Both the position numbers and the translations under genes were made by a program. Source: Anaerolineales bacterium (GTDB lineage: Bacteria > Chloroflexota > Anaerolineae > Anaerolineales > UBA6668). Taken from it: a DNA stretch of 60,713 nucleotides. Below the pieces are notes generated by a model that worked only from the letters and a program-made list of their open reading frames with translations, was not told the origin of the DNA and did no database searches. Below, piece by piece: positions 32,728-55,652 of the stretch; the first letter of the stretch is position 1; every line of letters starts with the position of its first letter. The DNA is taken from NCBI GenBank assembly GCA_020630805.1, contig JAHDIM010000003.1, positions 1 through 60,713 on the forward strand, given 5' to 3'.

Positions 32728-33573
32728 TTAGCGTAATTCGCAAAATGCAAACAGCGTGTATTTTTTACTTGGGTCTTGTAAACGTTTCAGTTCTGAGATG
32801 GTGTAACCCGCGCTTCTAATTGTGAGCGCAAATGAAACGGCTCCAAAAACATGCCCATGATCAATAAAGAATTCTTGCCGCTCGATGCCGTCATACGCCG
32901 CAATTTCGCCGTCTGGCACTTCAAGATATACAAAGCCACCTGGCTTTAGAAAGCGTTTTGTATGCGCTAAAAAGTCAATTGGAGCCGGCACATGTTCTAA
33001 AACTTTGTTGAGACTGATCACGTCAAAGCGTGCTTCCGTTTCAAACTTAGCAAAGTCAGCATGATATGCAGTGACGCCCACGTAGTCTCGGGCGTGCGCC
33101 ACATTCCGTGGATCTGGGTCTACGCATGACACTTGCCAACCGCCGCGCTTCATAGCCGCCGGAAATACAGCCAACCCACTCCCAACATCTAATACACTGT
33201 GTTGGCTGAAATCAGTTGTGCCAAATTCTTGGGCAGCATAGTCCGCAATCCGCTTTACTCGGCCAGCGTTATCAGACGCTGAGGCCGGTAACGCCATAAT
33301 GCGTTCAAATGTGGCCTCTACCCCTTTCTGCCCCGCATAGGTCGCCGTAACGTAGTCAGCGTCATAGTGCACTTCACTGCCCATCGTATGGTGCGAAACA
33401 AAATGCCCACACACCTGACACTGATCTACCGTCCGCCGATAAGGTTTATTTTGTGTAAAGGAGAAACGCGTTTCACGCGCTGGGGCTTCGCTATATTTAA
33501 AAACATTTTTCCAGCTAGTTTGGCTGCAAATTAGGCAAGGTTGCGTGTAAAGCGGGAACTCTTCAGTAGGCAT
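32728..33573 (-). CDS. Class I SAM-dependent methyltransferase with N-terminal CxxC...CxxC
   Basis: CLIC...CQVC, LDVGSGL, KVLEHV, LKPGG.VYLEVP. Confidence 0.85.
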   Translation of the reverse strand: MPTEEFPLYTQPCLICSQTSWKNVFKYSEAPARETRFSFTQNKPYRRTVDQCQVCGHFVSHHTMGSEVHYDADYVTATYAGQKGVEATFERIMALPASASDNAGRVKRIADYAAQEFGTTDFSQHSVLDVGSGLAVFPAAMKRGGWQVSCVDPDPRNVAHARDYVGVTAYHADFAKFETEARFDVISLNKVLEHVPAPIDFLAHTKRFLKPGGFVYLEVPDGEIAAYDGIERQEFFIDHGHVFGAVSFALTIRSAGYTISELKRLQDPSKKYTLFAFCELR

Positions 33574-33677
33574 GTACTATACGTCTCGATTTTGATTGCC
33601 GTATTGATGGGCTGGGCACTGGTGGACAGTTTGGTTAGCGGCACAGCAAAACACTATGCTGAAGGAGCCACTCAGGC

Positions 33678-35510
33678 TTATGCCCACTGCTCCATAAACA
33701 TTTTGGTGCTAAGGAAGTAAAACAAGAATTTACTTTCACTATTCGGCAGTTGGTCTTTTTGAATAATCTGCGCTATTTTATCGCGTTTGACATAGTCAAA
33801 AATTGGGCTGTTGTCCAGCAAATAGGCTTTTGTAGCGGGGTCGGACAGCTCTAGAAAATCAAAAATTGGCGCATTGAAACCAACCTTACGGCGATTATCT
33901 AGAATTTTATCTGGCACAATACCGCGCATCGCTTCCCGCAAAACAGACTTCGCTGCGCCGTCTCTAATCAGGTGCCGTGACGGAATTTGATAGCAATGTT
34001 CATACAAGGCGCGGTCTAAAAATGGAGAGCGGTTCTCGATAGAGAAGTACATTGCATTGAGGTCTTCCTCATGTAGCACCTGACGCGTGGCTTCATGGAA
34101 GAGTTCATTCATCATCCGATTACGTAACACGCCTGGCACGTAGCGTTCTTCGGCAAAGGGCTCTGGCGTGTAATTGTGCAAAAATTGCGCAAACTCAACG
34201 TTCCCAAGATAAATATGCCCTCTAAATTCAGGATCTTTGACATACAAATCGGGCTGTTTCAAATACGGGTTGCGCACGATCGGCGCAATGTGTTTTTGCC
34301 AATTACGTAACGCTTGCGCGTGTTCTACAGGGTCATTGCTAACCTCGTATAGATAGGCGTTGTGATGGTCATAGTAGCCAGTAAACAGTTCATCTGCCGC
34401 AATGCCACTAATCGAGATTTTGTAACCATGTTGCGCAACCTGCGACATCAACAACCAATGTGCATAATACGTAATGGTTAGTACAGGTGCGTCGTGTTGC
34501 GCGACCAGCGTCTTGAGATTTGGTAGAAAATCGCTAGTGCTGATAGGCAATGCTGTGTGTTTCAGCCCTTGTTGTGTCACGGCGTGATCGATATAGTCTT
34601 GCTCTTCATAGCGGGCATCGGTATTCACAATGGTGAAGCCGTGCACGTCATAATCAAACACATTCTTAGCGATGCTAATTAACGAATTAGAATCAATGCC
34701 ACCACTCATCGCAAAAGCTAACGGCACATCAGCCCGCAAGCGCAATTCAACCGACCGAATAAGGCGCGCGCGCGCCTCAGCAACCGCCTCGGCATAGCTC
34801 ATATCTGGCTGTTGCGCCACAATTGGGTCCCAATAGCGGAAGCTAGAAATAGTACGCGCCGCGTCTAACTGCACCACAGCGCCTACTTCTAGGTAATAAA
34901 CCCCTTCAAAATAGGTTTCATCAGATTTACTTAGCGACTTATAGCCATTTACCAAATAACGCTGTACATAAGGGATATTGATCGGCAATTTATGCCCCAA
35001 TAAAGCAAAAATGAATTTGATCTCAGACCCAAAGTAAACGCCATTATGCGCGCGGTATAGGTACAGCGGTTTTTCACCAAAGCGATCACGTGACAGGCTA
35101 AGTTGCTCTTTGGCACTGTCATAGTAAGCAAACGCCCACATTCCTTCACAACGGTCTAGAAATTCTAAGCCATCACAGCGTAAACCTTGCAGCATCACCT
35201 CAGTATCAGACTCAGTTTCAAATTCAACCTGATGCGACTTGCTTAAAGCCGCCCGCAATTCAAGGTAGTTGTAAATTTCACCATTGATTGCGAGAGATTG
35301 CTGTCCACGGCCCATTGGCTGATTAGCGCGAGCGTCTAAATCAATAATACTTAGGCGTGAATGTAATAAATGTACATGTTGCCCCTTAGATGTCTGCCAA
35401 GACTGTACAGCTCGATGATCTGGTCCGCGACGGCCCATCTTTGCTAAACAAGCGTCTAGCAATTTATCCTCAAGCGGTGCGTCACCTATATAGCCAGCGA
35501 TACCACACAT
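33678..35510 (-). CDS. asnB: AsnB-type glutamine-dependent amidotransferase (glycan amidation type)
   Basis: MCGIAG N-terminal nucleophile, RRGPD, RLSIIDL, NGEIYNY, RDRFGEKPL, SGGIDS, ADELF.GY, ENRSPFLD. Confidence 0.93.
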   Translation of the reverse strand: MCGIAGYIGDAPLEDKLLDACLAKMGRRGPDHRAVQSWQTSKGQHVHLLHSRLSIIDLDARANQPMGRGQQSLAINGEIYNYLELRAALSKSHQVEFETESDTEVMLQGLRCDGLEFLDRCEGMWAFAYYDSAKEQLSLSRDRFGEKPLYLYRAHNGVYFGSEIKFIFALLGHKLPINIPYVQRYLVNGYKSLSKSDETYFEGVYYLEVGAVVQLDAARTISSFRYWDPIVAQQPDMSYAEAVAEARARLIRSVELRLRADVPLAFAMSGGIDSNSLISIAKNVFDYDVHGFTIVNTDARYEEQDYIDHAVTQQGLKHTALPISTSDFLPNLKTLVAQHDAPVLTITYYAHWLLMSQVAQHGYKISISGIAADELFTGYYDHHNAYLYEVSNDPVEHAQALRNWQKHIAPIVRNPYLKQPDLYVKDPEFRGHIYLGNVEFAQFLHNYTPEPFAEERYVPGVLRNRMMNELFHEATRQVLHEEDLNAMYFSIENRSPFLDRALYEHCYQIPSRHLIRDGAAKSVLREAMRGIVPDKILDNRRKVGFNAPIFDFLELSDPATKAYLLDNSPIFDYVKRDKIAQIIQKDQLPNSESKFLFYFLSTKMFMEQWA

Positions 35511-35515
35511 AAGGG

Positions 35516-36514
35516 CTAGCGCACCGCGTCCAAAGCGAACTGTTCACCGGCAACCATTGCGTCATTTAGCGTTTTACCGATTAGTAGCGCTTCTTCACCT
35601 GGCGCAATACCAGTTCCCGGGCGCGTCCAGGTGAGGTCTGCTGCGGTCAGCACGTGCCCAGCAGCTAAATCATGGGCAGCCACAATCGATCTTCGGTAAG
35701 CTGAAACGCCCTGTTGTTCTGGCGCTTGAACAATTTTTTCGACGTTGCCGAGCATGTTCTCTACACGCCGCACCGCGGTCACTAAGGCCTGCAACTCAGC
35801 CGGATCTGCGGAGAGCTGATGGTCACGGAAATCAGAATAGTTTTTATCTAACGTAAAGTGTTTTTCAAGAATAGTGGCCCCAAGCGCAACCGCAGCAATA
35901 CAAGCATCAATGCCAAGGGTGTGGTCAGAATATCCCACAGCAATATCCGGATATTGCGCCTTGAGGAATTTGATTGTGTTCAACCCCGCATCTTGATCCA
36001 ACGTTGGATAGCTGCTAACACAATGTAAAAGCGCGAGTTCATTCTGGGTGTGAGCATGGGCCCGATAAACCTTGACCAAGGTGTCAATTTCAGCACCAGT
36101 ACACAATCCTGTTGAAATAATTGTTGGGTTTGGCAAGGCCGCTGTCGCGCTAATCAATGGAAAAAACTGGTTATCACCCGAGGAAATCTTCACAAAATCC
36201 ACTGCATTGCCAACAAACGCAACGCTGGGAACATCAAACACGCTGGCCGATGTTTTCACGTTGAGCGTGTGTGCCAAGGCAAACAGCTCTTGAAATTGGT
36301 CGTCTGTCAGTTCGTAAGACTTCAACTGCGCTAAGCGTTTATTTTTCTCTGGCCCAACCAAACGTTCAGGACGAATCACCTGAAATTTAACAACATCTGC
36401 ACCACTTTCTGCGGCAGCATGCACCATTTCTTTGGCAACAGTAAAGTTGCCTTCATGATTATTACCAATTTCGGCAATAACCAATACGGGTCCGTTTGAT
36501 AAAGAATTACTCAA
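35516..36514 (-). CDS. neuB: NeuB-family nonulosonic acid synthase (copy 3) with SAF domain
   Basis: IAEIGNNHEG, VKFQ, LLHCVSSYP, GYSDHT, EKHFT, DHQLS, RRSIVA, RPGTGI. Confidence 0.88.
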   Translation of the reverse strand: MSNSLSNGPVLVIAEIGNNHEGNFTVAKEMVHAAAESGADVVKFQVIRPERLVGPEKNKRLAQLKSYELTDDQFQELFALAHTLNVKTSASVFDVPSVAFVGNAVDFVKISSGDNQFFPLISATAALPNPTIISTGLCTGAEIDTLVKVYRAHAHTQNELALLHCVSSYPTLDQDAGLNTIKFLKAQYPDIAVGYSDHTLGIDACIAAVALGATILEKHFTLDKNYSDFRDHQLSADPAELQALVTAVRRVENMLGNVEKIVQAPEQQGVSAYRRSIVAAHDLAAGHVLTAADLTWTRPGTGIAPGEEALLIGKTLNDAMVAGEQFALDAVR

Positions 36515-36541
36515 ATTAGCCTCTGTCTAGATAAACGCCAT

Positions 36542-37273
36542 TTAGAAGGCTGCATCTACATAGTGCAGCACATATTTTGTAGACTCGATTGAAAAGCCTA
36601 GCTTCTCATAAAACCGCATTGAAGGAATGTTAGACACCTGCGTGCCCACCCGCCAACGGTCAATATTTGGAATTGATTGCTGCGCAAAAGCGACCAGTTG
36701 CATTGCAATGCCCTGCTTCTGAAATGCCTGATCGACGGCAATCAAATCGATCGTAAGTGTGGCTTCTCGCTTGATAAGCAGTAAAAAGCCCACAATTTTC
36801 CCCTGATGTTCTGCAACAACTAAGTCTGTGCCACGTGTTCCTAAAAAATAATTACCCACCCATGCAGACCGCGTTTTTAAACCAGCTGCTGGCGGCACCT
36901 TAGGATCAATCAAAAAACGATTATAAACAAAACTCGCGCGCGCCATTGTTTTCACAGGCGTTGCGTCAGAGGGGGTGGCAAATCTATATGTGATCTGCGT
37001 TGAAGCGCTGGTAGAAGAAACATCGGGCGTAACCGCTGGTGTTACAAACACGATGTTGGTATCAATAAGCCGAAACTGCTGCTGCTGATAAGCGGCAACC
37101 CACTCAACGGCCACAGTTGGGAGCTTGACATCTACAAAAACGCCACGCTCCCGCTTGTTATGTGATTTGAGTTCAGCCCACGTTGGGCTCGCTAACGCTT
37201 GAGCATAGTCTGTAACTGTATAAGCATCTAAGGCCCATAAGTCAGATAGCCAAGCATTTTTGACAATTGTCAT
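36542..37273 (-). CDS. GNAT acetyltransferase (WecD-like)
   Basis: RF..DP, IDLIAV...QKQGIA, VGTQ..N.PSMRFYEKLGF. Confidence 0.82.
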   Translation of the reverse strand: MTIVKNAWLSDLWALDAYTVTDYAQALASPTWAELKSHNKRERGVFVDVKLPTVAVEWVAAYQQQQFRLIDTNIVFVTPAVTPDVSSTSASTQITYRFATPSDATPVKTMARASFVYNRFLIDPKVPPAAGLKTRSAWVGNYFLGTRGTDLVVAEHQGKIVGFLLLIKREATLTIDLIAVDQAFQKQGIAMQLVAFAQQSIPNIDRWRVGTQVSNIPSMRFYEKLGFSIESTKYVLHYVDAAF

Positions 37274-37281
37274 TTGCCTAA

Positions 37282-38298
37282 TTAGGCATTTTCAAGTGAT
37301 TGATACCACTCAATATATTCACGAAAACCAGTATCGATTGGATATTGGGGATCATATCCAATTAGCCGACGCGCCTTATCTACACTGAGAGTACCCCGGA
37401 TTGGCAAGGCCGTGTCACGCTCTGATTCTTCGAGTTGAATATCAGGAAAGTATTCCCGCGTAATTGTCGCCAGATCAGCAATAGAGCGGGCGCTACCGTA
37501 GGTCATATTGAAAATTTCATTATAGGAATTTGTATTTTCAATACAATTTACAATCCCACCGACCAAGTCGTTGATGTAGGTAAAGTCTAGCTTTTCTGCC
37601 CCACCACCGTTCAGGCGCAATTTATGACCTTGTAGGGCATTTTCAATAAAGATTTGACCGACACGACGGCTAACACAACGTTGACCGTACAATGCTGAAG
37701 GCCGAATGATGGTATACGGCAAGTCAAACACGTGGTTGTATGCCATCACCATTTTTTCACCGGCAAACTTCAATGACGCGTACATGCCAAACGGTTCGCA
37801 GTGGGTTTCCTCATCAACTGAAGCCGTTTTGAAGTGGCCGTATACCGTACTTGAAGAGAAATAAATAAACTGCTCAACATGCCCACGTGCATAATCTAGC
37901 GCATTTTCTAGCGTGCGTAGGCTATGGTCAAACGTGCTGTATGGGTTCTTATTAGACTTACCAGCATGTGAAATTGCAGCTAAATGCACAATCACCTGCG
38001 GATTGATCTCACGTAGTGTTTTAGAAAGACCACCATAGTCACGCGCATCTTGCACATGCAACGGAACCTCTGCGGCGCGCAACAGATCTAACCGTTCATT
38101 CAAAATACGTAAGTACAAGTCACGGTTCCGCACGGGCTGCGCAGTGGTGGAATATTCCAACAAGTTGTTGACTTGCAAACTATCAACGACATGGATATCT
38201 GCCCCTAATTCTTTTAGAGTAAGTGCCATGTGGTGCCCAATAAAGCCAGCCCCGCCAATGATGGCAATGCGGCGGTCTTTGATTTCTAGTATGCTCAT
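37282..38298 (-). CDS. NAD-dependent epimerase/dehydratase (extended SDR)
   Basis: GGAGFIG, HLAA, SSSTVYG, YASLK, RPSALYG, DFTYINDL. Confidence 0.9.
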   Translation of the reverse strand: MSILEIKDRRIAIIGGAGFIGHHMALTLKELGADIHVVDSLQVNNLLEYSTTAQPVRNRDLYLRILNERLDLLRAAEVPLHVQDARDYGGLSKTLREINPQVIVHLAAISHAGKSNKNPYSTFDHSLRTLENALDYARGHVEQFIYFSSSTVYGHFKTASVDEETHCEPFGMYASLKFAGEKMVMAYNHVFDLPYTIIRPSALYGQRCVSRRVGQIFIENALQGHKLRLNGGGAEKLDFTYINDLVGGIVNCIENTNSYNEIFNMTYGSARSIADLATITREYFPDIQLEESERDTALPIRGTLSVDKARRLIGYDPQYPIDTGFREYIEWYQSLENA

Positions 38299-39443
38299 TT
38301 TGTCACCTCGATTAAGGCGTCTTTCAGCGTTGCCACGATGTAAGCCATATCGTCTTGGTCTAAGTGTGGGCCAACCGGCAGCGCAATAGATTGTTCACTA
38401 ATGCGGGTTGCATTTGGATAGTCTGACTCTTGGTAGCCATACTTTTCACGGTAATACGTCAATTTTGGGACTGCTTTAGGATAGTACACGCTTGTACCAA
38501 CACCATGTGCTTTCAAATAGTTCACAATCTCAAAACGCAGTGGCGCAATGTCATCTTTCAACACAACTGAGAGACAGTAATAGCTGCTTTGAATACGGTC
38601 TGTAGAAGACTCAAACAAATCAATTTCAGCAATGTCTTGTAACCCAGCCTGCAACGCTTCATAGTTAGCTTTACGGGCCGTCAGGAAGCCGGGCATGCGT
38701 TTAACTTGCTCAATGCCAATGGCAGAGGCAATTTCATTGAGCCGATAGTTGAACCCCAGCATATTGACATCGTAAACGCCAGGCACTTTGCGTTCACCAA
38801 CGTGACGATCCACCCCAAAGGCCCGCTGGCGCGTAATCTTTGTGGCAATATCCTCATGCTTAGTGGTCAGCATGCCACCTTCAGCTGTTGTCATATGTTT
38901 GACCGGGTAAAACGAATACGCCCCAACATCACCAAACAACCCAACGTGTTTGCCATCTACGTAGCCACCAATTGCCAAGGCGCAATCTTCAACAACAAAC
39001 AAATTATGTTTATTCGCGATTGTCATCAGTTTTGGCATGTCTACCGGTAAACCGAGGTAGTGCACAAGCGAAATTGCTTTTGTGTTGGGTGTGATTGCAG
39101 CTTCAAGCTGATCCAAATCCATATTACCGGTACGTAATTCGGCATCAACAAACACCGGTTTAGCACCGGTCAGTTCAACCGCATGTGCGGTAGCATTATG
39201 GGTTTGCGCTGGCACAATAACTTCATCACCGGGGCCAGTGCCCAAATAGAAGTAACTCAGGTGCAACGCGGCTGTACAAGAGGAGACAGACACCGCATAA
39301 GGCGAACCAGTGAATGTAGCAAAGTCCGCTTCAAATTGCTTTGCACGCGGCCCATGCACAAGAATATGGCCTTCTAAAACTTCGGCGACAGCTGCTTTTT
39401 CTTCAGCACCAATAATTGGTCGCCCAAAAGGTACGTTTCTCAC
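38295..39443 (-). CDS. DegT/DnrJ/EryC1/StrS aminotransferase
   Basis: SSCTAALHL, VEDCA, SFYPVKHMTTAEGG, GFNYR. GTG start at 39443 has AAGGA upstream. Confidence 0.92.
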   Translation of the reverse strand: MRNVPFGRPIIGAEEKAAVAEVLEGHILVHGPRAKQFEADFATFTGSPYAVSVSSCTAALHLSYFYLGTGPGDEVIVPAQTHNATAHAVELTGAKPVFVDAELRTGNMDLDQLEAAITPNTKAISLVHYLGLPVDMPKLMTIANKHNLFVVEDCALAIGGYVDGKHVGLFGDVGAYSFYPVKHMTTAEGGMLTTKHEDIATKITRQRAFGVDRHVGERKVPGVYDVNMLGFNYRLNEIASAIGIEQVKRMPGFLTARKANYEALQAGLQDIAEIDLFESSTDRIQSSYYCLSVVLKDDIAPLRFEIVNYLKAHGVGTSVYYPKAVPKLTYYREKYGYQESDYPNATRISEQSIALPVGPHLDQDDMAYIVATLKDALIEVTK

Positions 39444-39470
39444 TATTAAAAAATCCTTATCTATTCGCAA

Positions 39471-40463
39471 TCAATCTAACGTAATTTCAGTTCCCGTTCG
39501 GATTGACTCTTCAATTGCTAAACACACGCGCATCACATGGAAGACATCAGCCTTCAACACATAGGGATTACGATCGTCACGAATTGCATCCACAAAATCA
39601 CGCACTAGTTCGCCTTTATCAACAGCGGGGTAGGCCTGATCGGTAATCATCGGGCTATCCTGATGTGCCCGCGACGTATAGTATTTGCCGCCCTCTAAGG
39701 TGTTCTCAAATGTCTTTTTCGCGCCGTATACGCTCATCCGATGGAAATGCGGGTAGACACAGCCAAAGTTTGCCGAAACCTTACCAACCACCCCATTTGC
39801 AAATTTGAGTAAGCAAACTGTGAAGTCATTATAGGCAAATGTTGTATCTGCTGAGACAATTTTATTTCCCATCGCAGAGACGGACGTCACTTTACTATCC
39901 ACTAGCCAGTACAGCAAGTCAATTACATGAATCGCTCCGCCAAAAGTCACTGAATAATAAGGGATCTGTCCGCGCCAGCCTGCAACAATTTTATGCAAGC
40001 GCCCATAATTGTAATCGCCTTCCACAAAATAGAGGTCACCGAATTCCCCAGCGTTAACCTGCTGTCTGAGATCTTGAAATCGCGGCGCTTGGCGCAAGAT
40101 CAAATTAGACGAGAGTTTTAGGTGCTTATGCTGAGCCGCTAACGCTTCAATTGCAGTCAGTTCTGCGGCGGTAAGGCAGATAGGTTTTTCAACAAAGACG
40201 TGCTTACCAGACGTCAGGGCTGCTTCAATTTGTTCAAAATGATGATTGTCATAAGACGCAATGACGACCGCATCAATTTGCGGATCGGCCAAGATAGCCG
40301 CTGCATCAGTATGCGAACGTGCCAAAGGAAATTGCGCGTGGACGGCGGCCAGCTTATCGGTATCAAAATCGGCAATCGCGAGCAATCTTGCATCTGGATG
40401 ACTTGCAATAGCATGGGCGTGCCGTTCGCCAACCCCAAGCCCAATAACGCCAAAGTTAATCAT
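39471..40463 (-). CDS. Gfo/Idh/MocA oxidoreductase
   Basis: GVIGLG.G, HVFVEKP, AIHVIDL. Confidence 0.9.
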   Translation of the reverse strand: MINFGVIGLGVGERHAHAIASHPDARLLAIADFDTDKLAAVHAQFPLARSHTDAAAILADPQIDAVVIASYDNHHFEQIEAALTSGKHVFVEKPICLTAAELTAIEALAAQHKHLKLSSNLILRQAPRFQDLRQQVNAGEFGDLYFVEGDYNYGRLHKIVAGWRGQIPYYSVTFGGAIHVIDLLYWLVDSKVTSVSAMGNKIVSADTTFAYNDFTVCLLKFANGVVGKVSANFGCVYPHFHRMSVYGAKKTFENTLEGGKYYTSRAHQDSPMITDQAYPAVDKGELVRDFVDAIRDDRNPYVLKADVFHVMRVCLAIEESIRTGTEITLD

Positions 40464-41151: not shown

Positions 41152-41187
41152 CAAAAAGTTACCCGCTATAGCAGCAGGTGCGCCCGG

Positions 41188-42237: not shown

Positions 42238-42246
42238 AGGGATGCG

Positions 42247-43900: not shown

Positions 43901-43995
43901 TGAGTATTACAACGCACTGTCTGAAAAATCACGCTTGGCCTCAACAACGCTAAACACACTTACTTTTGAGATGAACGTGAAAAAAACAACCACAA

Positions 43996-44682: not shown

Positions 44683-44686
44683 GAAA

Positions 44687-45382: not shown

Positions 45383-45388
45383 CGGTGA

Positions 45389-47045: not shown

Positions 47046-47055
47046 GCGGGCCTAA

Positions 47056-47514: not shown

Positions 47515-47527
47515 ACGCAATGTAGGC

Positions 47528-48193
47528 TCACTTCTTTTCAACAACGACTCTCCATTCAGCATGTTGGCTATTGTCAGCACCAACCTGATTATTCCAGAGC
47601 GTTTCTTCACAAGTGTGCATGTGCCAATTGGCAACCGGGAACATCTCCATAATCATAGCTTGAGTATAAAAACAAATTGCGCCAACACCGGTTAGGTTGC
47701 CTTGCGTAATTTCTGTATTCAGCCCGCTTTTGCCAGCTGCACTCGTATGACTAACAGAATACACATTAAAAAAGAATTTACCGCCAGCTTTTAGTGTTCT
47801 ATGCACTTCAGCGACAGCTTGTTGCGCTTGCGCGTAAGCACAGCAGGTAATCCCAGCACGGTCAATCGCCAGATGAAATACGGCATCCTCAAAAGGAAGG
47901 CTTGTAAAGTCGGCGACACGCAAATCTGCGGTGAGACCTTCTTCTACAAAGCGCTGTTTTGCATACTCGATTGCGGTTGTGCTGCCATCAATGCCAGAGA
48001 CAGAAAACCCTTCGCGGGCCGCAAACCAAAGATTACCTGCCGTTCCACAGGCAACTTCTAAAATTTCAACCTGATTGCGTTCAATGTCGCGCGGGGCATT
48101 CCGGAAAACAAATGACACAACCGCATCCCATGGATAGCGATTCCTATGCCCTTGTGAATAGAGCTCATTCCAGATTGGGTCAAATGCGGTCAT
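47528..48193 (-). CDS. Class I SAM-dependent methyltransferase
   Basis: RYPWD.VV.F, LEVACGTAGN, GIDGS, LPF, LKAGG. ATGA overlap at 48190-48193. Confidence 0.87.
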   Translation of the reverse strand: MTAFDPIWNELYSQGHRNRYPWDAVVSFVFRNAPRDIERNQVEILEVACGTAGNLWFAAREGFSVSGIDGSTTAIEYAKQRFVEEGLTADLRVADFTSLPFEDAVFHLAIDRAGITCCAYAQAQQAVAEVHRTLKAGGKFFFNVYSVSHTSAAGKSGLNTEITQGNLTGVGAICFYTQAMIMEMFPVANWHMHTCEETLWNNQVGADNSQHAEWRVVVEKK

Positions 48194-49539
48194 AAAAGGC
48201 AACCTTGTAATTCTGTGTAAATGGTTGATTTGCCAACTTGCTCTGTATCCAGCCAAACGAACGGAGCATATTGCGCAAGCTCTTGTTTGAGCTGCTCTAA
48301 TTCGGCTAGATAACCCGGTTTAGCGAGACTATATGTTTTGGGCACCCGATAGTGCACAGAATCTACATAGGTAGCCGTTGGCGTCACAATCTCACTTTGG
48401 ATAACTTCTTGCCAAAGCTGATCACGATACTGCGCAATATCTTGCCAATACGCAGATCCAACTGGCGTGACCACTTCGCAGCAAATATAAGAGTATCCCG
48501 GCGGTGCAGTGTTCAAATTATCGATGTAACTACCCGGTGTAGAAATGCGATACGCAATTTCTGCAGCATCATAGTTGTGTATGTATGTGATGTCCGTCAC
48601 ATCGGTAGACTTTACCGCGAAATACATCAGCACCATCGGCACCGCTTCAGTCAATGTATCAAGCTTATAACGACCCGCACAAAAGGGCGTAAACGTTGCT
48701 TTTGGTAACGTCCAAAACAAGCGATCCGCTTCAAAAGACTGTCCGTCTGCGGTGCTGACACGGGCATCGTTTGGCGTTAGCAGCACATCATTAACTGCGG
48801 CGCCTAGATGCAAAGAAACCCCACTACTTCTCAAATTAGATGTCGCAATGTCCAAAAAGTCATCAAACCCACGCAATGTCGGGTAGAAATTACGAAAGTC
48901 GCGCTGCTGCACTTTGTCTCGATAAAACTCCAATGGATCCGCCGCAGAAGACACGCCAAGCCGATCATCAAGATATGGGGCTTGTTTGAACAACAAAGAC
49001 GTCTGTCGATCAAAGAGTTGAATCCGCTGAAACATTGTTTGAGGCAATGCGTTGGCTGAAATCGCTTCTGGCCGGACGCTATACGCTTTTAGGAAGGCTG
49101 CCGCAACATGCGGATATAACGTCGGGCCAAACCGCTGTACAAGTGCCTCGGCTAAACTGTGATTAACGCCGTCACTACTAGCATGGCTAGCCTGAGCAAT
49201 TTCTAGCAAACTAACGGCACTTGTAGCCTGCGGCAAATGCAAAAAGGTTGGAATTGCTAATCCATTAACAGTTTGCCCGCCGCTAATAGATGCATAATTT
49301 ACAGTGAGCGGCGCAAAATTACCATTGCCCAACTCCCAAATAAAATCAGTAAAAGAATCGCTACTGTTGTCAAAGAGATGGCAGCCTTTATCAAGCAGAT
49401 AAGCCCCCCACTTAATTGGGCGTAACACCCCACCAAGCTTTGGGGCAGCATCAATCAAAGTTACATCTTGGCCTTTTTTTGCCAACAGGTAAGCTGTAGC
49501 AATGCCTCTAAATCCCCCGCCTACAACAATATTTCGCAT
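48190..49539 (-). CDS. FAD-dependent oxidoreductase (HemY/UGM-like fold)
   Basis: VVGGGFRGIATA, DAAPKLGG, DKGCHLF. Confidence 0.75.
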   Translation of the reverse strand: MRNIVVGGGFRGIATAYLLAKKGQDVTLIDAAPKLGGVLRPIKWGAYLLDKGCHLFDNSSDSFTDFIWELGNGNFAPLTVNYASISGGQTVNGLAIPTFLHLPQATSAVSLLEIAQASHASSDGVNHSLAEALVQRFGPTLYPHVAAAFLKAYSVRPEAISANALPQTMFQRIQLFDRQTSLLFKQAPYLDDRLGVSSAADPLEFYRDKVQQRDFRNFYPTLRGFDDFLDIATSNLRSSGVSLHLGAAVNDVLLTPNDARVSTADGQSFEADRLFWTLPKATFTPFCAGRYKLDTLTEAVPMVLMYFAVKSTDVTDITYIHNYDAAEIAYRISTPGSYIDNLNTAPPGYSYICCEVVTPVGSAYWQDIAQYRDQLWQEVIQSEIVTPTATYVDSVHYRVPKTYSLAKPGYLAELEQLKQELAQYAPFVWLDTEQVGKSTIYTELQGCLL

Positions 49540-49541
49540 AC

Positions 49542-50597
49542 TTATTTTTGCAAATCTGTTTTAGAAAACATATACCCAATCGCAACATCATGCGGCAGCG
49601 TATACCCAATTAGGTAGTCCATTTGGGCTGGCGGTAAGCCACTGCCCGGACGCCGAAAGGCGATGTCATCTTTAGACAGAGTGTGCCCCTTTGGCAACGC
49701 CCGCGCCGCAACGCAAGACAAGCGATAAGCCTCACGGTTTTCATTTTCTACACCGCTTAGTCCCAGCGCCGAAACGCCAAGATTCGCTTCAATCTTACGA
49801 ACCCCTTGCACAAGCTGCGTAAATTCAGCCGGGTCTGAAGAAAATCGATGATCTGGGCCAGGCAAATTGCGATCTAACGTGAAATGTTTCTCAATGAAGC
49901 AAGCCCCTAATACCACTGCGCCAATCGCCGCCTCAATACCTTCTGTGTGATCACTAAAACCCACTGGCACCCCAAAGGTCTGTTGTAAAGATGGAATCTT
50001 GCGCAAATTCACCTCATCTGAGGGACACGGATAAGCAGACGTACAATGCAAAAGCACTAAATTCTGATTGCCTGTGGCCTTAAATGCCCGCACAGACTCG
50101 TCAATATCAGCAACGGTTGCCATGCCAGTAGATAGAACGGTGGCAACGCCACTTTGCCCCATATAAGCAACCAGCGGCAGGTTAGACAAATAGTCTGAGC
50201 CATTCTTAACAATTGGGGACCCTAGCGCCACTAGCGCATCAACACCATTTTTGTTAGTAGGCGTGCTATGAAAGATAATGCCAACTTCATCACAATACGC
50301 CTTCAACATGCCCAACTGAGCATTGCTAAGTTCATACCGCTTGAACATATCAAACTGAGGCTCGCACACGGGTTCACCCTGTGAGATATAGTCATACATC
50401 AGTGAGCGATCAGATAGAAAATCTTCGGTGACATAGTTCTGAAACTTGACAGAATCAGCACCAGCTTCCTTAGCAGCATCAATCATTTGCTTTGCTAAAT
50501 CCATATCACCGTTATGGTTGATACCAATTTCTGCAACAATAAAGCACGGTTCACCCGCACCAAGCGCACGGTCTCCAATTGTAATTTTAGTGTTCAT
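49542..50597 (-). CDS. neuB: NeuB-family nonulosonic acid synthase (copy 1) with SAF domain
   Basis: AEIGINHNGD, VKFQ, LLHCTSAYP, GFSDHT, EKHFT, GPDHRFS, RRPGSG. Start moved to ATG 50597. Confidence 0.88.
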   Translation of the reverse strand: MNTKITIGDRALGAGEPCFIVAEIGINHNGDMDLAKQMIDAAKEAGADSVKFQNYVTEDFLSDRSLMYDYISQGEPVCEPQFDMFKRYELSNAQLGMLKAYCDEVGIIFHSTPTNKNGVDALVALGSPIVKNGSDYLSNLPLVAYMGQSGVATVLSTGMATVADIDESVRAFKATGNQNLVLLHCTSAYPCPSDEVNLRKIPSLQQTFGVPVGFSDHTEGIEAAIGAVVLGACFIEKHFTLDRNLPGPDHRFSSDPAEFTQLVQGVRKIEANLGVSALGLSGVENENREAYRLSCVAARALPKGHTLSKDDIAFRRPGSGLPPAQMDYLIGYTLPHDVAIGYMFSKTDLQK

Positions 50598-51636
50598 AAG
50601 ACAACATCGCCTCAACGACGCGGCTGGCACCTTTGCCATCAATTATGGTGGCCGCACGCTGGCCTAACTGTTTACGTAATGCTGGCGCAGTTAAGAAATG
50701 CGCTAAGCGTTTTTGGACAGCAGCCGTTGACTCTGGCGTAATCACCCGTAAATCAACCTGCAATGCTGCCGCCGCATTTGCTAAATATAATGCGTTGGCA
50801 TTCTGGTTATCTGCAAGCACGCAAATAAACATTGGCAACGCAAAAAATGCGATCTCCCAACACGTAGAACCACCGGCACAGATAACCGCATCAAACGTCG
50901 GAATAAATGTTGCCATATTTTCTACATAGTGTATTAGCGTCACATCATGTGGCAGCGTTTGCACCAACTGCTTCAATTCCGCAACATGCTCATTTTGGGG
51001 ACCGGTAATCACGGTCAGGGAAAGCGGCTTTGCTTGGAACGTAGCCAATGCTTGCAAAATACGCTGCGTGACGTTATCAGGATCGCTGCCGCCCATCGTA
51101 ATCAGGACAGAAAGTTGCGCATTAGTCGGTTTAGGCAACTGCGAAGCCGTAATAAATTCAGACCGTAACAGTGTATATTGCGTACCAAGCAGTAAACGCG
51201 CCTGTGGGCTACTGTCCTGATAGGGATAGTCTGCCGCTGTAATGTTTTGATTGAGGATCAGGTCTGCCTGATAAGTAGGGAGATGATGATAGTCGTCTAA
51301 GACGAGCAGTTGCCAACCCGCCATTTTAATCTGTTCTTGATAGGCAAGATCAAAGTGATAGCCATCTAATACCACCCAGTCGGGTTGGACCCGTTGAATG
51401 TCACCTAAAAGCGCTGCCAATTGCTTTGCCGGCGGCGCTGAAGGTGAGACAGGCAGAATCTGCGCAGACAATAGCAAGAACTTCGCCAGCAAATCTGGCG
51501 CGGTGCAGTCTGTCACAACAACAAGCTGACCGCCTGTGGCATGCCAAGCCTGACCCAAAGCGAGGCAGCGCATAAAATGCCCTACCCCAATCTTTGGATT
51601 CGCATCTATTCGTAATAAAAGAGTTTTTTCTGGCAA
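50587..51636 (-). CDS. pseG: UDP-2,4-diacetamido-2,4,6-trideoxy-beta-L-altropyranose hydrolase
   Basis: RIDA...IG.GHFMRCLALG, DGY, DD, LLR.EF, MGGSDP, AGGSTCWE, ADNQ, DGKGA.RV. Confidence 0.9.
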   Translation of the reverse strand: MPEKTLLLRIDANPKIGVGHFMRCLALGQAWHATGGQLVVVTDCTAPDLLAKFLLLSAQILPVSPSAPPAKQLAALLGDIQRVQPDWVVLDGYHFDLAYQEQIKMAGWQLLVLDDYHHLPTYQADLILNQNITAADYPYQDSSPQARLLLGTQYTLLRSEFITASQLPKPTNAQLSVLITMGGSDPDNVTQRILQALATFQAKPLSLTVITGPQNEHVAELKQLVQTLPHDVTLIHYVENMATFIPTFDAVICAGGSTCWEIAFFALPMFICVLADNQNANALYLANAAAALQVDLRVITPESTAAVQKRLAHFLTAPALRKQLGQRAATIIDGKGASRVVEAMLSYEH

Positions 51637-51645
51637 GGGTAGCCG

Positions 51646-53736
51646 CTAGCTAACTAAGCGTTTGAACCGCGAGTGCGCTTCAGGACCAATCAGCGCGTCT
51701 TGAATAGTGTCCGTTTCGATATGATCTTTGAGAATACGGAAGACTTTCTCTACAGAGACCAAATACTCGGCGACGATTTCGGCGCTGTGCGCGTTTGTGA
51801 AATACACGCCACCGGTTGCCAAATAGCCCTCAGAAAGCATGTATTGGGTAAACAATGTGCGTAATGCGTTGGCTTGCGGGTGGTCAAAGCCAAAATGGCT
51901 TAATGCCGGCAGCCCGTCAACATGTACAGCAATCCCTACAGTCTCGGCAGCAGCCCGCCAGCCTTCTTGCACCTGATGGCCAAGTGCATTCAATTTCTCG
52001 GCAACATTCGCCGCCTGATATTTACGGATTGTTGCAATCGCGGCAGCTGGCCCAATTCGTTCAGTCCAGTAAGAGCTACTGATAAACGTTTCTTGCGCCG
52101 CGCTCATTACGCCTTCAGTCCCAATAATTGCGGCCATGGCATATCCGTTGCTCACCGCTTTGGCAAACATTGCGATATCTGGATTCACATCATAAAGCAA
52201 GTGCGCTCCGCCAGCATTTTGCCTAAATGCCGCTGTGCACTCGTCAAATACTAGTACAGCGCCAATTTCATCCGCAATTGCGCGTACAGCCGCTAAATAT
52301 CCCGGCTCAGGCTGAACAGTCCGGATCGGCTCCATAACGATTGCCGCCACTTCGCCAGCGTGCGTGCTGACAAGGTCGCGCAAATTTTCAATATTATTGA
52401 ACTCAAATGGGAAGGTCGTGCCAACTAATCCGCGCGGCACACCCTTTGGCGCTAAGCCTGGAATTAGATGGCCGTCTAAGCCAGCATCATCTGCCAAATT
52501 TGTAGACAGATACCAGTTATGCCAACCATGATACCCACAAAATAAGACTTTATCTTTACCCGTGGCGGCGCGTGCAATCCGGACAGAAATTGCCATTGCT
52601 TCGCCACCAGTGCGGGCATAGCGCACCATATCAGCCCAAGGATGCAGTTCACACAACAGTTCGGCCAACTCTACTTCTTCTGGACAGTTCAGCGTAGACA
52701 TCACGCCATTTTGAAAGGCCTCAAGCACGGCCGCATCCACATCCGGATCCTTAGCACCCAGAATGCAAGTGCCAATGCCATTGTGTGCCATATCAATATA
52801 AGCATTACCATCCAGATCCCAAACGGTTACCCCTTCAACTTTGCTGTAATAAGAAGGCCAAAGATCGGGCAACATCATTTCTGGCCGCTTGGATAACAGT
52901 TGGGTGCCACCTGGAATTAGGCTTTTGGCATGTTCGTATAGTTTCTGACCAGTTCCGTTTTGAAAGTTGTTATCTGTCATGAGTCCACGCTCTGCTGCTA
53001 GGGATTTTGCATACCCTTCATTGCGTTCATACATTGTGTTGTATGTCATCAAATGTGGGTTTGCTTTTACATATGCCAATGTTTCTGCGTAAGTAAACGC
53101 AGGATTATTAGCGTACAAGGCTTGATAAATAATATCGATTAGTTCGAAATCTTCTGGTTCATCTACGGTCCAACGTAAGTGCGACCAGTTTTCTGCAGCG
53201 CCTAAGTGTCCAATTTTGAACAATTCAGGCTGCCGATTGATGTAAGGGGTAACGTGTTCACGCTGTGAGGGGAGCTCAGCGTTTTGCCACGCTTCTTTCA
53301 GAGCGTCTAGGCTAAAGACTTCAACATCTAACCCGTCTGGAAAAACAGGGTTGAGCGCATTGGTTGCATAATCAAAGTCGTTATTCAAATAGAGGTCAAT
53401 CACCTCATCAATAATCTCTGGATCAATAACGGGGCAATCCCCTGTCAGGCGTACCACGGTGTCAATGTCAGGATATTGCAGTGCGGCCTGATAAAACCGA
53501 TCCAGCACATCGTTCAAATCGCCAGCGAACGCATCCACCTGATGCGCCGCGCACAGGTCAAGAATTTGCGTGTCACTGCTATCGTTACTGGTTGCAACAA
53601 CAAGTTTGTCAATTCGCTTAGAGCGCTGTACGCGCCGAACCTGCTGGATAAGCATTGGCGCGCCCGCTAAGTTTTTCATGACTTTACCGGGCAATCTTGT
53701 AGAAGAAAAGCGAGCTTGAAGAATTGCAAGAATCAT
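51646..53736 (-). CDS. Fusion of an SpsF-type cytidylyltransferase and a glutamate-1-semialdehyde aminomutase-like class III aminotransferase
   Basis: N-terminal LQARFSSTRLPGKV, RLTGDCP, EHVTPY, RWTVDE. C-terminal IPGGTQLLSKRP, RTGGEA, GYHGW, FDE, FAKAVSNG (PLP Lys). Confidence 0.9.
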   Translation of the reverse strand: MILAILQARFSSTRLPGKVMKNLAGAPMLIQQVRRVQRSKRIDKLVVATSNDSSDTQILDLCAAHQVDAFAGDLNDVLDRFYQAALQYPDIDTVVRLTGDCPVIDPEIIDEVIDLYLNNDFDYATNALNPVFPDGLDVEVFSLDALKEAWQNAELPSQREHVTPYINRQPELFKIGHLGAAENWSHLRWTVDEPEDFELIDIIYQALYANNPAFTYAETLAYVKANPHLMTYNTMYERNEGYAKSLAAERGLMTDNNFQNGTGQKLYEHAKSLIPGGTQLLSKRPEMMLPDLWPSYYSKVEGVTVWDLDGNAYIDMAHNGIGTCILGAKDPDVDAAVLEAFQNGVMSTLNCPEEVELAELLCELHPWADMVRYARTGGEAMAISVRIARAATGKDKVLFCGYHGWHNWYLSTNLADDAGLDGHLIPGLAPKGVPRGLVGTTFPFEFNNIENLRDLVSTHAGEVAAIVMEPIRTVQPEPGYLAAVRAIADEIGAVLVFDECTAAFRQNAGGAHLLYDVNPDIAMFAKAVSNGYAMAAIIGTEGVMSAAQETFISSSYWTERIGPAAAIATIRKYQAANVAEKLNALGHQVQEGWRAAAETVGIAVHVDGLPALSHFGFDHPQANALRTLFTQYMLSEGYLATGGVYFTNAHSAEIVAEYLVSVEKVFRILKDHIETDTIQDALIGPEAHSRFKRLVS

Positions 53737-54638
53737 TTATTTACCTGCCATAACCCTGGGTTGAGATAGTGCGAATCACCTTGAAAACTAAACTTTTGAT
53801 ACTCAGCCTGTGTCAATGCGGCTGGCGCTTGCCACAAAGTATTCAATTGCCTAAGTTGGGCTTCTGAATTGACACCAACCACAGCAACATCAATAGCTGG
53901 ATGCGTTTTCACATAATCCAACGCTAATTGTAATTTTGAAATATTACGCGGCTCAGTTTGGGCAAACACGGCATTCAGATGCGCAACAAGCGGCGCAAAG
54001 TAAGGATCGAGATTGCCTAAATCCATCACAAGTAAGCCCTGCAAAAATACAGACCGCGCATGAATTTCTACGCCCCGCGATTTTAGCGTATTTAGAAATG
54101 TGTGCCCTGCTGTCGTAGGGTCTAAATAATTGACAGGGATCTGCAACACATCAAATTCAAATTTCGAAAAAAGTTGCTCTGCTTCTGCAACTGAGTAAAC
54201 AGAAACGCCAATTTTTTCAACCAGCCCTTGCTGTTTGAAGCGTCGCAAAAGTGCATAAAAATCCGCTGCCCCAGCCACGTGTAGGTTATTTGCCGCGTGA
54301 ACTAATACCGCATAAATCTTTTCAAGTTGTAAATTTTGTAGCGATTGGTCAAATTCTTGTTGCAACTGTGCAATTTCAGCGGGACCAATATTTGTATACG
54401 GCTGTGCGCCAATTTTAGTAATGACCTGTGCCGTTTTTGTCTGTGCAGTAAAGTTACCCAGTACACGCTCACTATCGCCATAGGCTGCGGCGGTATCTAA
54501 ATACGTCACGTTTGCGCTAGCGGCGTAGTTCAAAATCGTTTCAACTTCAGCTAAACTCGTTTTGCCAGCCGCATTGGAAATGCCATAGTCAAGGCCAAAT
54601 TGAACCGTTCCAAGCCCAAGGGCACTGGTTGTCATCAT
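53733..54638 (-). CDS. Aldo/keto reductase
   Basis: LGLGTVQFGLDYG, DTAAAYG.SE, ITK, LVH, IGVSVY, HARSVFLQGLL. Confidence 0.9.
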   Translation of the reverse strand: MMTTSALGLGTVQFGLDYGISNAAGKTSLAEVETILNYAASANVTYLDTAAAYGDSERVLGNFTAQTKTAQVITKIGAQPYTNIGPAEIAQLQQEFDQSLQNLQLEKIYAVLVHAANNLHVAGAADFYALLRRFKQQGLVEKIGVSVYSVAEAEQLFSKFEFDVLQIPVNYLDPTTAGHTFLNTLKSRGVEIHARSVFLQGLLVMDLGNLDPYFAPLVAHLNAVFAQTEPRNISKLQLALDYVKTHPAIDVAVVGVNSEAQLRQLNTLWQAPAALTQAEYQKFSFQGDSHYLNPGLWQVNK

Positions 54639-54644
54639 GCTACT

Positions 54645-55652
54645 TTATTCTCCGTTGGAGCGTTTTACATCCATAAAAACTGACATTTTTATCGCGCCGC
54701 CAAAGCCACTTTTGAATTTTGCAATATTCTGCATTTTAGGTGTCATCGGCGCAGAAGAATCTGCATAGGTCTGCCCCATATGAAAGCTAGGGATGCCAAG
54801 CTTAATACATTGTTGCAATGCCAACCACATAATTCCGTGATTCACAGGTTGACCAAATAACTCGCGTTTAGCAACAGAAGAACTATACTGACAAACACCA
54901 GTGTGCATCCCAGAAAACAAGGACGCCCCAACCAATTCGCCAGCCTCATCACGCGCCTCAACAACAAAAGAAGCACCTGCCACAATTGCATCCCATTGCA
55001 GGTCCCATGTTGCTTGGCTCCGCGTCTGTTTACCAGCTAAGGAAAAATGCAAAGCCTGAAACGCATCAAAGTCTGCACGCTTAGCACTCGGTCCAGAATA
55101 CAGATTGTGCGTCCATTTAGTTAGCGCACTCTTGATCAGCGGGCGATAACTCTTGCGGATATTCTGCCAAACGCTAGCATCATCTGAAAGCACGATGACA
55201 CTTTCATAGAAATTAGAAACTGCTACCTGCCACTGCAGATCTTGTAAAAAATAAGCCGCAAAAGCAGACAAACTGCCATCGATTAGCACGTCCTGCAATC
55301 TAAACTGATTAATACCGTGTGCAGCCAACAATTTCAAAAAATGCGCCGTTACGGAACGCCGCACGATGCCATCATTTTTAGCAATAACCAACACCTCATC
55401 GCCCCAGTTATTAAGAACAGTTGGGGCATCTTCAGCGGCAGCAGATGCAATTGTACAGAATACAGCAATGCCTGAATTAGCATCAGAGAAACGGCCAAAG
55501 GAGACATCTTCAAATTGCTGAGCCGTATAGTACTCAGCTTGGTATTGGTAGTGCCGCGTATTCTGCAAGCGCAAGGTATACGCGTTAGGCTCTGCTAGCG
55601 TTAGCGCATGTGGGTGGAGATTTGAGGCAGTTTGAATAATATGGTGTGACAT
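54645..55652 (-). CDS. FemAB/GNAT-fold protein
   Basis: W.NIRKSYRPLI, LH....GK.TRS..TW, Y......R, H..MW, I..FK.GFGG. Confidence 0.72.
   Translation of the reverse strand: MSHHIIQTASNLHPHALTLAEPNAYTLRLQNTRHYQYQAEYYTAQQFEDVSFGRFSDANSGIAVFCTIASAAAEDAPTVLNNWGDEVLVIAKNDGIVRRSVTAHFLKLLAAHGINQFRLQDVLIDGSLSAFAAYFLQDLQWQVAVSNFYESVIVLSDDASVWQNIRKSYRPLIKSALTKWTHNLYSGPSAKRADFDAFQALHFSLAGKQTRSQATWDLQWDAIVAGASFVVEARDEAGELVGASLFSGMHTGVCQYSSSVAKRELFGQPVNHGIMWLALQQCIKLGIPSFHMGQTYADSSAPMTPKMQNIAKFKSGFGGAIKMSVFMDVKRSNGE

Follow-up and report, generated by a model that had tools for sequence, protein, structure and literature searches.

Nonulosonic acids (NulOs) shape the recognition of microbial surfaces, and their CMP-activated forms are hard to synthesise. 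The described systems closest to the locus considered here are the canonical pseudaminic acid (Pse) pathway of Campylobacter jejuni and Helicobacter pylori, the flagellin-glycosylation locus of C. jejuni and the sps operon of Bacillus subtilis (SpsM, C, D, G, E, F), through which legionaminic acid (Leg) is made without NeuC by way of SpsG, SpsE and SpsF, according to the excerpted text of PMC7439481. For a Vibrio Pse cluster it has been proposed that NeuA/PseF is replaced by an SpsF-like cytidylyltransferase carrying an aldo/keto reductase (AKR) domain (PMC7371886), and the gene tables of the lipopolysaccharide loci of non-serogroup-1 Legionella pneumophila (Sg6/Sg12) show PseG in the company of a class-III aminotransferase, a cytidylyltransferase, an aryl-alcohol-dehydrogenase-like oxidoreductase and DegT (PMC3694923), as far as the excerpts of these two papers go. 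We were interested in how these systems compare with the window, the whole 60,713-base contig C46 of the Anaerolineales bin G000, and in particular with its positions 32728-55652, where an earlier note had pointed to three NulO synthases. This region is the NulO part of one very large (about 55 kb), single-strand surface-glycan locus; from 55652 to 464 all sizeable genes lie on the minus strand, overlapping or separated by short gaps. The reading that we consider probable is that of three end-to-end cassettes, with A (55652-43996) an uncharacterised variant of the Pse pathway, B (43900-41188) built on a canonical Pse synthase (PseI) and C (41154-32728) a self-contained module, PseB and PseC coming from another contig of the bin (C152).

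The three synthases are the following:

49542-50642, minus strand: NeuB366, a NulO synthase that belongs to a separate clade of NeuB (TIGR03569 350 bits; KNGSD[YF] motif)
41188-42237, minus strand: PseI349, canonical pseudaminic acid synthase (TIGR03586 499 bits; C. jejuni PseI 8h2c 311 bits)
35516-36514, minus strand: NeuB332, a homolog of NulO synthases that falls into a third clade and has a SAF domain (TIGR03569 278 bits)

All three were matched with E-values of 1e-82 or below, which speaks against a product of chance, and share 35-37% pairwise identity; the likely start of NeuB366 gives a protein of 351 aa (49542-50597). PseI349 alone passes the PseI model TIGR03586 (cut-off 340.25 bits; NeuB366 262 bits, NeuB332 217 bits), and none of the three passes the NeuB/NnaB model TIGR03569 (cut-off 399.65 bits), for which PseI349 gave 310 bits. 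A quick IQ-TREE phylogeny (LG+G4, SH-aLRT) was calculated for 84 NeuB-family rows: the three window proteins, E. coli K1 NeuB, 18 random rows of 80 PseI-centred loci with their second copies, all stop-free NeuB matches with a length of 250 aa or more in metagenome loci spanning at least 8 kb, and the matches in the loci of relatives. The tree excludes broken matches and shorter loci, as well as L111 and L112, which repeat the genes of L100 and L101; its named reference is E. coli K1 NeuB, and the other rows are labelled by their gene neighbours. The window proteins fell into three separate starred clades, as expected for the three distinct synthases claimed earlier: PseI349 into one of 19 rows (SH-aLRT 100), NeuB366 into one of 31 rows (99) with PseB, PseC, PseG and WbqC as neighbours, and NeuB332 into one of three rows together with homologs from the genomes G019 and G026 (99). 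E. coli K1 NeuB paired with a NeuC-adjacent synthase (100) within a NeuC-linked group (87) that holds none of the window proteins; NeuC is therefore probably not needed.

The equivalents of E25, H215, E234, H236 and R314 of Neisseria meningitidis NeuB are invariant in all three synthases, H215 and H236 being presumably metal ligands. At the position of E134, for which a catalytic role is proposed, Glu is found in PseI349 and Asp in NeuB332; in NeuB366 the residue is Tyr, directly preceded by Asp. According to the section from which the list of catalytic residues was taken (PMC8208679, section 13, seen as an excerpt), Asp occurs at this position in 29% of environmental sequences. It was also found in 119 of the 120 listed homologs of NeuB332, and 109 of the 120 listed homologs of NeuB366 (rows P0002-P0120) share the KNGSD motif, in place of which other NeuB-family proteins show K-x-x-S-x-E/D. 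As it is kept in so many homologs, the changed motif of NeuB366 is a trait of its family and not a sign of decay. This conservation, the retained catalytic residues, the many homologs of each synthase at 50-67% identity and the presence of three intact genes with tight operon spacing on one 60.7-kb contig make it most improbable that any one or two of these enzymes are dead leftovers of a hypervariable, horizontally shuffled glycan locus, or that the contig is an assembly chimera, even if glycan loci vary within the genus (the congeners G001 and G002 have one match each to the NeuB332 query, at about 33% identity) and two populations appear to share the bin. For NeuB366 and for NeuB332 at least 120 database clusters (for NeuB332, clusters of about 50% identity) were found per clade; among the matches of these protein searches only automatic names and no characterised reference occurred. 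NeuB366 and NeuB332 represent two NulO-synthase clades outside every curated model and solved structure.

Cassette A, to which NeuB366 belongs, contains in the order of transcription, with NeuB366 between PseG and the FAD/NAD-binding oxidoreductase:

54645-55652, minus strand: protein of the FemAB family, similar to aminoacyl/acyl transferases, whose gene opens the operon behind RNase J (TIGR04421 105 bits, below 250)
53733-54638, minus strand: AKR (KidO-like NF011432 124 bits, below cut-off)
51646-53736, minus strand: fusion of a cytidylyltransferase (residues 4-201) and a class-III aminotransferase (296-622), 696 aa, here CTP-AT3 (PF02348 115 bits, PF00202 125 bits)
50587-51636, minus strand: PseG-family UDP-sugar hydrolase (TIGR03590 219 bits, cut-off 153.55)
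48190-49539, minus strand: FAD/NAD-binding oxidoreductase (amine-oxidase/desaturase-like), a variable tailoring gene (NCBIfam matches weak)
47528-48256, minus strand: S-adenosylmethionine (SAM) methyltransferase MT242 (weak UbiE/MenG-like matches), in 14 of 41 NeuB366 loci
47056-47634, minus strand: GNAT acetyltransferase GNAT192, a weak PseH relative (TIGR03585 33 bits, cut-off 93.1), in 14 of 41 NeuB366 loci
45999-47045, minus strand: short DegT-family pyridoxal-phosphate enzyme DegT348 (PseC model 152 bits, below 423.5), in 14 of 41 NeuB366 loci
45389-46006, minus strand: SAM methyltransferase MT205, always paired with WbqC and directly ahead of it, in 28 of 41 NeuB366 loci
44687-45382, minus strand: WbqC-family protein (PF08889 261 bits), in 31 of 41 NeuB366 loci
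43996-44682, minus strand: PIG-L/BshB-type N-deacetylase (BshB1 77 bits, below cut-off), in 29 of 41 NeuB366 and 14 of 80 PseI loci

The search for NeuB366 loci led to 80 metagenome loci, 41 of which span at least 8 kb and form the basis of the counts. In 31 of these 41 the central synthase is 52-61% identical to NeuB366 and one order recurs, PseB-PseC-[AKR-CTP-AT3]-PseG-synthase-[FAD/MT/GNAT/DegT]-MT-WbqC-PIG-L (MT, methyltransferase). PseC was counted in 32 loci, PseG in 27 and PseB in 24; CTP-AT3 (11), AKR (9) and the FAD oxidoreductase (5, in each case directly 3' of the synthase) are rarer members. The dehydratases of the 31 close loci are 49-64% identical to a PseB protein that passes the cut-off, and NeuC was seen only beside distant homologs of NeuB366 (39-43% identity; six of the 41 loci, none of the 31 close ones). 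The window genes from 55652 to 43996 follow exactly this order, except that PseB-PseC is absent at the head and the FemAB-like gene stands there. Around PseI, 80 loci of many phyla showed the same upstream set, typically as PseB-PseC-AKR-CTP/AT3-PseG-...-PseI, with PseB in 53, PseC in 62, PseG in 61 and CTP-AT3 in 18, the fusion homologs (33-61% identity) lying between PseC/AKR and PseG; AKR homologs between PseC and the cytidylyltransferase/aminotransferase gene occur in 11 of them. Since the same genes are found in loci that have PseB, PseC and PseG, the AKR, CTP-AT3, FAD, DegT and WbqC genes are additions and not replacements. AKR, FAD oxidoreductase, cytidylyltransferase-aminotransferase, extra DegT, WbqC and PIG-L are ordinary companions of a canonical Pse-type supply, and the AKR, FAD and extra aminotransferase genes of cassette A are not stand-ins for NeuC. 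Literature on the function of the cytidylyltransferase-aminotransferase-AKR set, or on cassette C, was not found in the searched papers; the set of companion genes has been noticed before and never characterised.

We now come to the missing first steps. The bin (500 contigs, 4.67 Mb) is fragmented, 84% complete and 6.8% contaminated. NCBIfam models confirmed the earlier observation that the window itself holds neither NeuC nor equivalogs of PseB, and PseC is likewise absent from it; Pfam and TIGR03590 confirmed two PF02348 CMP-activating domains and one PseG. That the supply route is incomplete, as had been concluded from this, is not shown: contig C152 of the same bin carries, side by side, a PseB of 498 bits (TIGR03589, cut-off 407.75) and a PseC of 454 bits (TIGR03588, cut-off 423.5), so that the inference was mostly an effect of reading one contig, with the restriction that PseB and PseC are in the same bin and not proven to be in the same organism as the window. 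The search of the 84%-complete bin for NeuC, in turn, supported the earlier note, as no protein passed TIGR03568 (best 76 bits, cut-off 235.9). C152 (1-8169) encodes the C-terminus of an ABC transporter, PseB, PseC, a FemAB-like protein, an unknown 237-aa protein, a methyltransferase, an FAD oxidoreductase and an esterase-like protein; it resembles the head of a cassette of type A and may be a second locus or the allele of another population. Its FemAB-like protein is 42% identical to that at 54645-55652, which gave no Pfam match and is a candidate N-acyltransferase in place of PseH.

Gene families, clades, conserved order and kept catalytic residues are direct observations; every substrate and product of the cassettes we infer. 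Cassette A would be the form taken in this locus by a version of the Pse pathway that is widespread and uncharacterised, in which PseB and PseC from the other locus (C152) would lead to UDP-4-amino-4,6-dideoxy-L-AltNAc. The FemAB-like or a GNAT acyltransferase would N-acylate this sugar, PseG would remove UDP, NeuB366 would then condense the sugar with phosphoenolpyruvate (PEP), and the SpsF-type cytidylyltransferase domain would activate the product with CMP; the fusion is presumed to be a CMP-NulO synthetase with an added tailoring domain. Class-III aminotransferase, AKR, PIG-L, WbqC and methyltransferases may remodel the N-acyl groups, for example to N-methyl-acetimidoyl. PtmG of C. jejuni is, as we take it, a WbqC-family protein, and the WbqC protein at 44687-45382 is accordingly listed as a candidate PtmG-like, acetimidoyl-forming enzyme and MT205 as a candidate PtmH-like N-methylase. 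The trio of WbqC, methyltransferase and deacetylase fits an N-acyl remodelling of the kind described for ptmG and ptmH, which turn N-acetyl into N-methyl-acetimidoyl (SugarBase preprint; also PMC5378307; both as excerpts).

Compared with the canonical Pse pathway, PseI349 and PseG pass their models in the window and PseB and PseC pass on C152, and PseB-PseC-...-PseG-synthase is the usual order around the homologs of PseI349 as well as those of NeuB366. The differences are the lack of PseH and PseF equivalogs in the bin, the position of PseB and PseC outside the locus, the SpsF-type PF02348 domain that serves for CMP activation as part of a fusion with a class-III aminotransferase, next to an AKR, and a second synthase from a clade other than PseI. 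The label SpsF-type itself rests, for both PF02348 proteins, on PF02348 and the literature and not on a specific model; neither a PseF nor a NeuA equivalog was among the listed NCBIfam matches of either protein (for 51646-53736 the best 25 of 69 families). With the C. jejuni flagellin-glycosylation locus the window shares several NulO synthases and a WbqC-methyltransferase pair that plausibly corresponds to ptmG/ptmH, whereas the Leg branch there runs over GDP-sugars with a LegG of the NeuC type. A flagellin domain was not found in the bin, so that the glycan should have a target other than flagellin. Vibrio B9-25K2 has the same families with PseG and DegT, the cytidylyltransferase being fused to AKR there and to the aminotransferase here (PMC7371886, excerpt); this cluster and that of L. 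pneumophila were likened by the gene names in the papers and not by sequences.

In view of these contexts, the reading of the earlier note appears unlikely to us; according to it, two or more of the three acids arise by new routes, the neighbouring AKR, FAD oxidoreductase, Gfo/Idh/MocA, SDR (short-chain dehydrogenase/reductase) and extra aminotransferase genes taking over the PseB or NeuC steps. PseI349 is canonical and the companions of NeuB366 occur in PseB/PseC/PseG loci, so the reading fits at most one synthase, NeuB332, whose cassette is retained as a candidate. In its favour, NeuC fails the cut-off in the bin and passes it in only two of the 41 genomes of the order although NeuB is found in 31, cassette C lacks dehydratase and hydrolase in four genomes, and C152 may be foreign to the organism of the window.

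A similar, low probability is given to a Leg route of the sps type, which would use two genes at the far end of the locus:

2465-4321, minus strand: PglF/CapD-type membrane-anchored UDP-GlcNAc 4,6-dehydratase, 618 aa (PseB model 184 bits, residues 283-579)
4315-5529, minus strand: LegC-like aminotransferase (TIGR04181 367 bits, below cut-off 420)

This pair is a possible in-window supply of 4-amino-4,6-dideoxy-HexNAc, and together with a GNAT protein, PseG, NeuB366 and an SpsF-type protein it would lead from UDP-GlcNAc to CMP-Leg or an isomer, so that PseI349 alone would depend on PseB and PseC. There are likenesses to the B. subtilis operon: both are NeuC-free, with a PseG-like hydrolase, a NeuB homolog and an SpsF-type enzyme, the published NeuC-free pathway relying on the PseG-like SpsG and on SpsF (PMC7439481, excerpt). 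All sps families (PglF/SpsM, SpsC-type, SpsG, SpsE-like, SpsF-type) are present in the window, the PglF/SpsM-type dehydratase and the LegC-like gene sharing contig and strand with NeuB366, and among solved structures NeuB366 matches B. subtilis SpsE (1vli) best. With 191 bits this similarity is modest and its margin small, as N. meningitidis NeuB follows with 175 and PseI with 168 bits. Moreover, the 31 close NeuB366 homologs adjoin PseB-type dehydratases, PglF-like ones being found in none of the 41 loci, and the PglF/LegC pair lies 44 kb away from the synthase among glycosyltransferases and more likely serves a bacillosamine-type sugar. The fused aminotransferase, AKR, WbqC and PIG-L are also not described for the sps operon in the excerpt of PMC7439481. 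We thus prefer the Pse variant for cassette A.

In cassette B, PseI349 is preceded by two genes:

42932-43900, minus strand: ATP-grasp ligase of PRK12767 type (NF009405 257 bits, below 390)
42247-42945, minus strand: HAD-IA hydrolase/phosphatase (TIGR02253 112 bits, below 169.75)

The ligase is a candidate amide-forming tailoring enzyme; homologs of both genes were absent from the 80 PseI-centred loci and the 41 NeuB366 loci at the thresholds used. As 50587-51636 is the single PseG above cut-off in the whole bin, its product would most likely feed both PseI349 and NeuB366, unless the two take differently N-acylated versions of it, and cassette B, comprising ligase, HAD hydrolase and PseI349, would probably draw on the same PseG product.

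Cassette C remains as the real candidate for new chemistry, and of the earlier claim of an undescribed pathway it is this part alone that remains tenable. It consists of the following genes, with NeuB332 between GNAT243 and AsnB:

40456-41154, minus strand: SpsF-type cytidylyltransferase CTP232, head of the cassette (PF02348 96 bits)
39471-40463, minus strand: Gfo/Idh/MocA NAD(P) oxidoreductase, GFO (IolG model 140 bits, below 355)
38295-39470, minus strand: DegT aminotransferase DegT391 (PseC model 298 bits, below 423.5)
37282-38298, minus strand: extended SDR, SDR338 (weak matches, RmlB model 104 bits)
36542-37273, minus strand: WecD-like GNAT N-acetyltransferase, GNAT243 (NF008212 86 bits, below 219; 35-36% identity in G026 and G081)
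33678-35510, minus strand: glutamine-dependent AsnB-type amidotransferase, the conserved cassette end (TIGR01536 355 bits, cut-off 267.1)
32728-33573, minus strand: SAM methyltransferase MT281 (Methyltransf_23 77 bits; homologs of 38-42% identity close to the cassette in G019 and G081)

The order CTP232-GFO-DegT391-SDR338-GNAT243-NeuB332-AsnB(-MT281) is the same in G019, G026 and G081, three genomes of the same bacterial order, at 34-63% identity; in these genomes CTP232 stands at the head (34-45%) and AsnB directly after the synthase (45-57%). The closest solved relatives of GFO are inositol and sugar dehydrogenases, and it is 38-49% identical to its counterparts within cassette C elsewhere. 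DegT391 (54-61% in the other genomes with cassette C) comes closest to C4 aminotransferases such as ArnB (198 bits) and perosamine synthase, with KdnA (5k8b) at 140 bits. SDR338 (61-63% in cassette C elsewhere) carries, as read by eye, SSSTVYG ... YASLK; 4,6-dehydratases have an Asp-Glu pair after the catalytic Ser/Thr. This pair was not seen in SDR338, by eye and without a residue-level alignment, and the protein reads as epimerase- or reductase-like rather than as a 4,6-dehydratase. The top solved relative of NeuB332 is 6ncs (151 bits). PDB searches with the DegT, SDR and GFO proteins gave family-level matches only and do not fix the position of oxidation or amination, and neither PseG, NeuC nor a dehydratase was found near cassette C in the window, G019, G026 or G081. 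Upstream of the cassette G081 has another DegT, another Gfo/Idh/MocA protein, a helix-turn-helix protein and a GT4 glycosyltransferase, and in G026 a formyltransferase and a polysaccharide deacetylase are added. Genes of the NeuB332 type are rare in the sampled phylum, with one of 400 other genomes having them at E ≤ 1e-65, the names of the database clusters include Riflebacteria, Planctomycetota, Alphaproteobacteria and Armatimonadetes, and one homolog of 529 aa (P0185) is fused to a PF02348 cytidylyltransferase.

Cassette C would make a third CMP-NulO, and NeuC would be needed by no cassette. That it constitutes an undescribed route to a CMP-NulO, without 4,6-dehydratase and without an NDP-sugar hydrolase of the PseG or NeuC type, is a tentative proposal to which we give about one chance in several, and two versions of it can be formulated. 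In the first, NeuB332 would condense PEP with a common hexosamine, and the acid, free or CMP-bound, would then be oxidised (Gfo/Idh/MocA), transaminated, N-acetylated and epimerised in a manner resembling Kdo8N, giving a 7- or 8-acetamido acid with the C9 hydroxyl retained. In the second, the Gfo/Idh/MocA enzyme would form a 4-keto NDP-HexNAc without 6-deoxygenation, and the sugar would be freed by a redox-assisted, GH109-like elimination. In the end AsnB would amidate the product. In the Kdo8N route, the oxidoreductase KdnB, which belongs to a family other than Gfo/Idh/MocA, and the DegT-type aminotransferase KdnA act on the free ulosonic acid. The oxidation and subsequent transamination of an ulosonic acid is the logic proposed for GFO and DegT391, the difference being the additional presence of SDR, GNAT, NeuB-homolog and AsnB genes in cassette C. 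If such a route is true, its product would be a NulO class beyond the scheme of neuraminic acid (Neu), Leg and Pse.

Several points weigh against the reading of three cassettes supplied from C152. No source of a free sugar was identifiable in cassette C. The closest solved relative of NeuB366 is the Leg-pathway SpsE and not PseI, and Tyr occupies its E134 position. One PseG would have to serve two synthases. No protein of the bin passed the models for PseH (TIGR03585, best 42 bits, cut-off 93.1) or PseF (TIGR03584, best 163 bits, cut-off 205.7, at C103:24-707 and thus outside the window). Neither C152 nor C46 showed an end overlap with any contig, and PseB of C152 is 75% identical to a gene of G001, the best match in G002 being 42%; because it resembles the G001 gene and has no close match in G002, PseB and PseC of C152 may belong to another population. 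There are indeed two RNase J alleles in the bin, and it therefore seems to be a mixture of two congeneric populations. The window copy of RNase J is 98% identical (aa) to that of the congener G002, 92% to the copy on C317 and 91% to that of G001; the second copy is split over C317 (25226-26830) and the start of C481, which are joined by a 55-base overlap. About 173 kb of the bin are duplicated at 70-90% nucleotide identity, some of this being true paralogs.

Triple NeuB loci are not unique to the window: in G007 a stretch of 15 kb holds three NeuB genes, next to genes for NeuA-like, aminotransferase and PseC-like proteins, and in several genomes of the order NeuB paralogs are 10-17 kb apart. 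With the NeuB332 query, NeuB homologs were found in 31 of 41 genomes of the order, often two or three per genome, and NeuC above cut-off in two of the 41. As multi-paralog loci are common and NeuC is rare, glycan loci with several synthases and no NeuC are a group trait; the window is not peculiar in this respect. The locus shows at least two NulO-synthase clades beyond the curated models and solved structures to be in use among environmental bacteria, each in a conserved cassette that recurs across phyla. Resolving the cytidylyltransferase/aminotransferase/AKR trio and the product of cassette C would extend the Neu/Leg/Pse scheme and improve automated annotation, which calls all such genes 'N-acetylneuraminate synthase'. 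For Anaerolineales, common filamentous bacteria for which NulO chemistry is not known to have been described, it would point to sialic-acid-like sugars on a non-flagellar surface structure.

A second NulO locus of the bin results from joining C103 (1-3260) and C66 (1-12271) by a 55-base end overlap. It encodes a HepA-like ABC transporter, an unknown protein, the PseF-like cytidylyltransferase already mentioned, two TIGR04396 'surface carbohydrate biosynthesis' proteins, an AsnB-like amidotransferase, GT4 glycosyltransferases and a fourth NeuB without SAF domain. The latter was considered as a frameshifted pseudogene; this was ruled out, as the break consists of a row of N between duplicated flanking sequences and is hence a scaffold gap. 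In G002, of the same genus, a NeuB-NeuC pair was seen on a contig of 1.8 kb (C98, L194), and since its NeuB is only 30-33% identical to the NeuBs of the bin, species within the genus have different sets of NulO genes. Many NeuB matches of G007, G011, G014, G018, G020, G024, G026 and G040 lie in frames of 635-760 aa that form a starred clade of their own and look like NeuB fused to another domain.

Upstream of the glycan operon lie RNase J (55827-57536), whose named database relatives are from Anaerolineales and Chloroflexota at about 65% identity, and a 926-aa protein (57916-60696) with a short NYN domain as its sole match (34 bits) and a 65%-identical partial paralog on C225. The left half of the locus (464-32750) holds GT2 and GT4 glycosyltransferases, many FkbM, CmcI and TylF methyltransferases, a DUF6044 protein and an NDP-hexose set of nucleotidyltransferase, 4,6-dehydratase, 3,5-epimerase, DegT and C-methyltransferases. 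The DUF6044 protein (30969-32750, 424 bits) lies inside the glycan operon; the open reading frames 29829-30950 and 27133-28050 gave no match in NCBIfam or Pfam, and 464-2461 none in NCBIfam. Each of these four is a possible polymerase, flippase or transferase for NulO sugars. Between 7622 and 29700, adjoining the NDP-6-deoxyhexose set, three FkbM-type, two CmcI-type, one TylF-type and two C-methyltransferase-type genes were counted, and this richness in methyltransferases suggests a heavily methylated, branched deoxy-amino sugar glycan.

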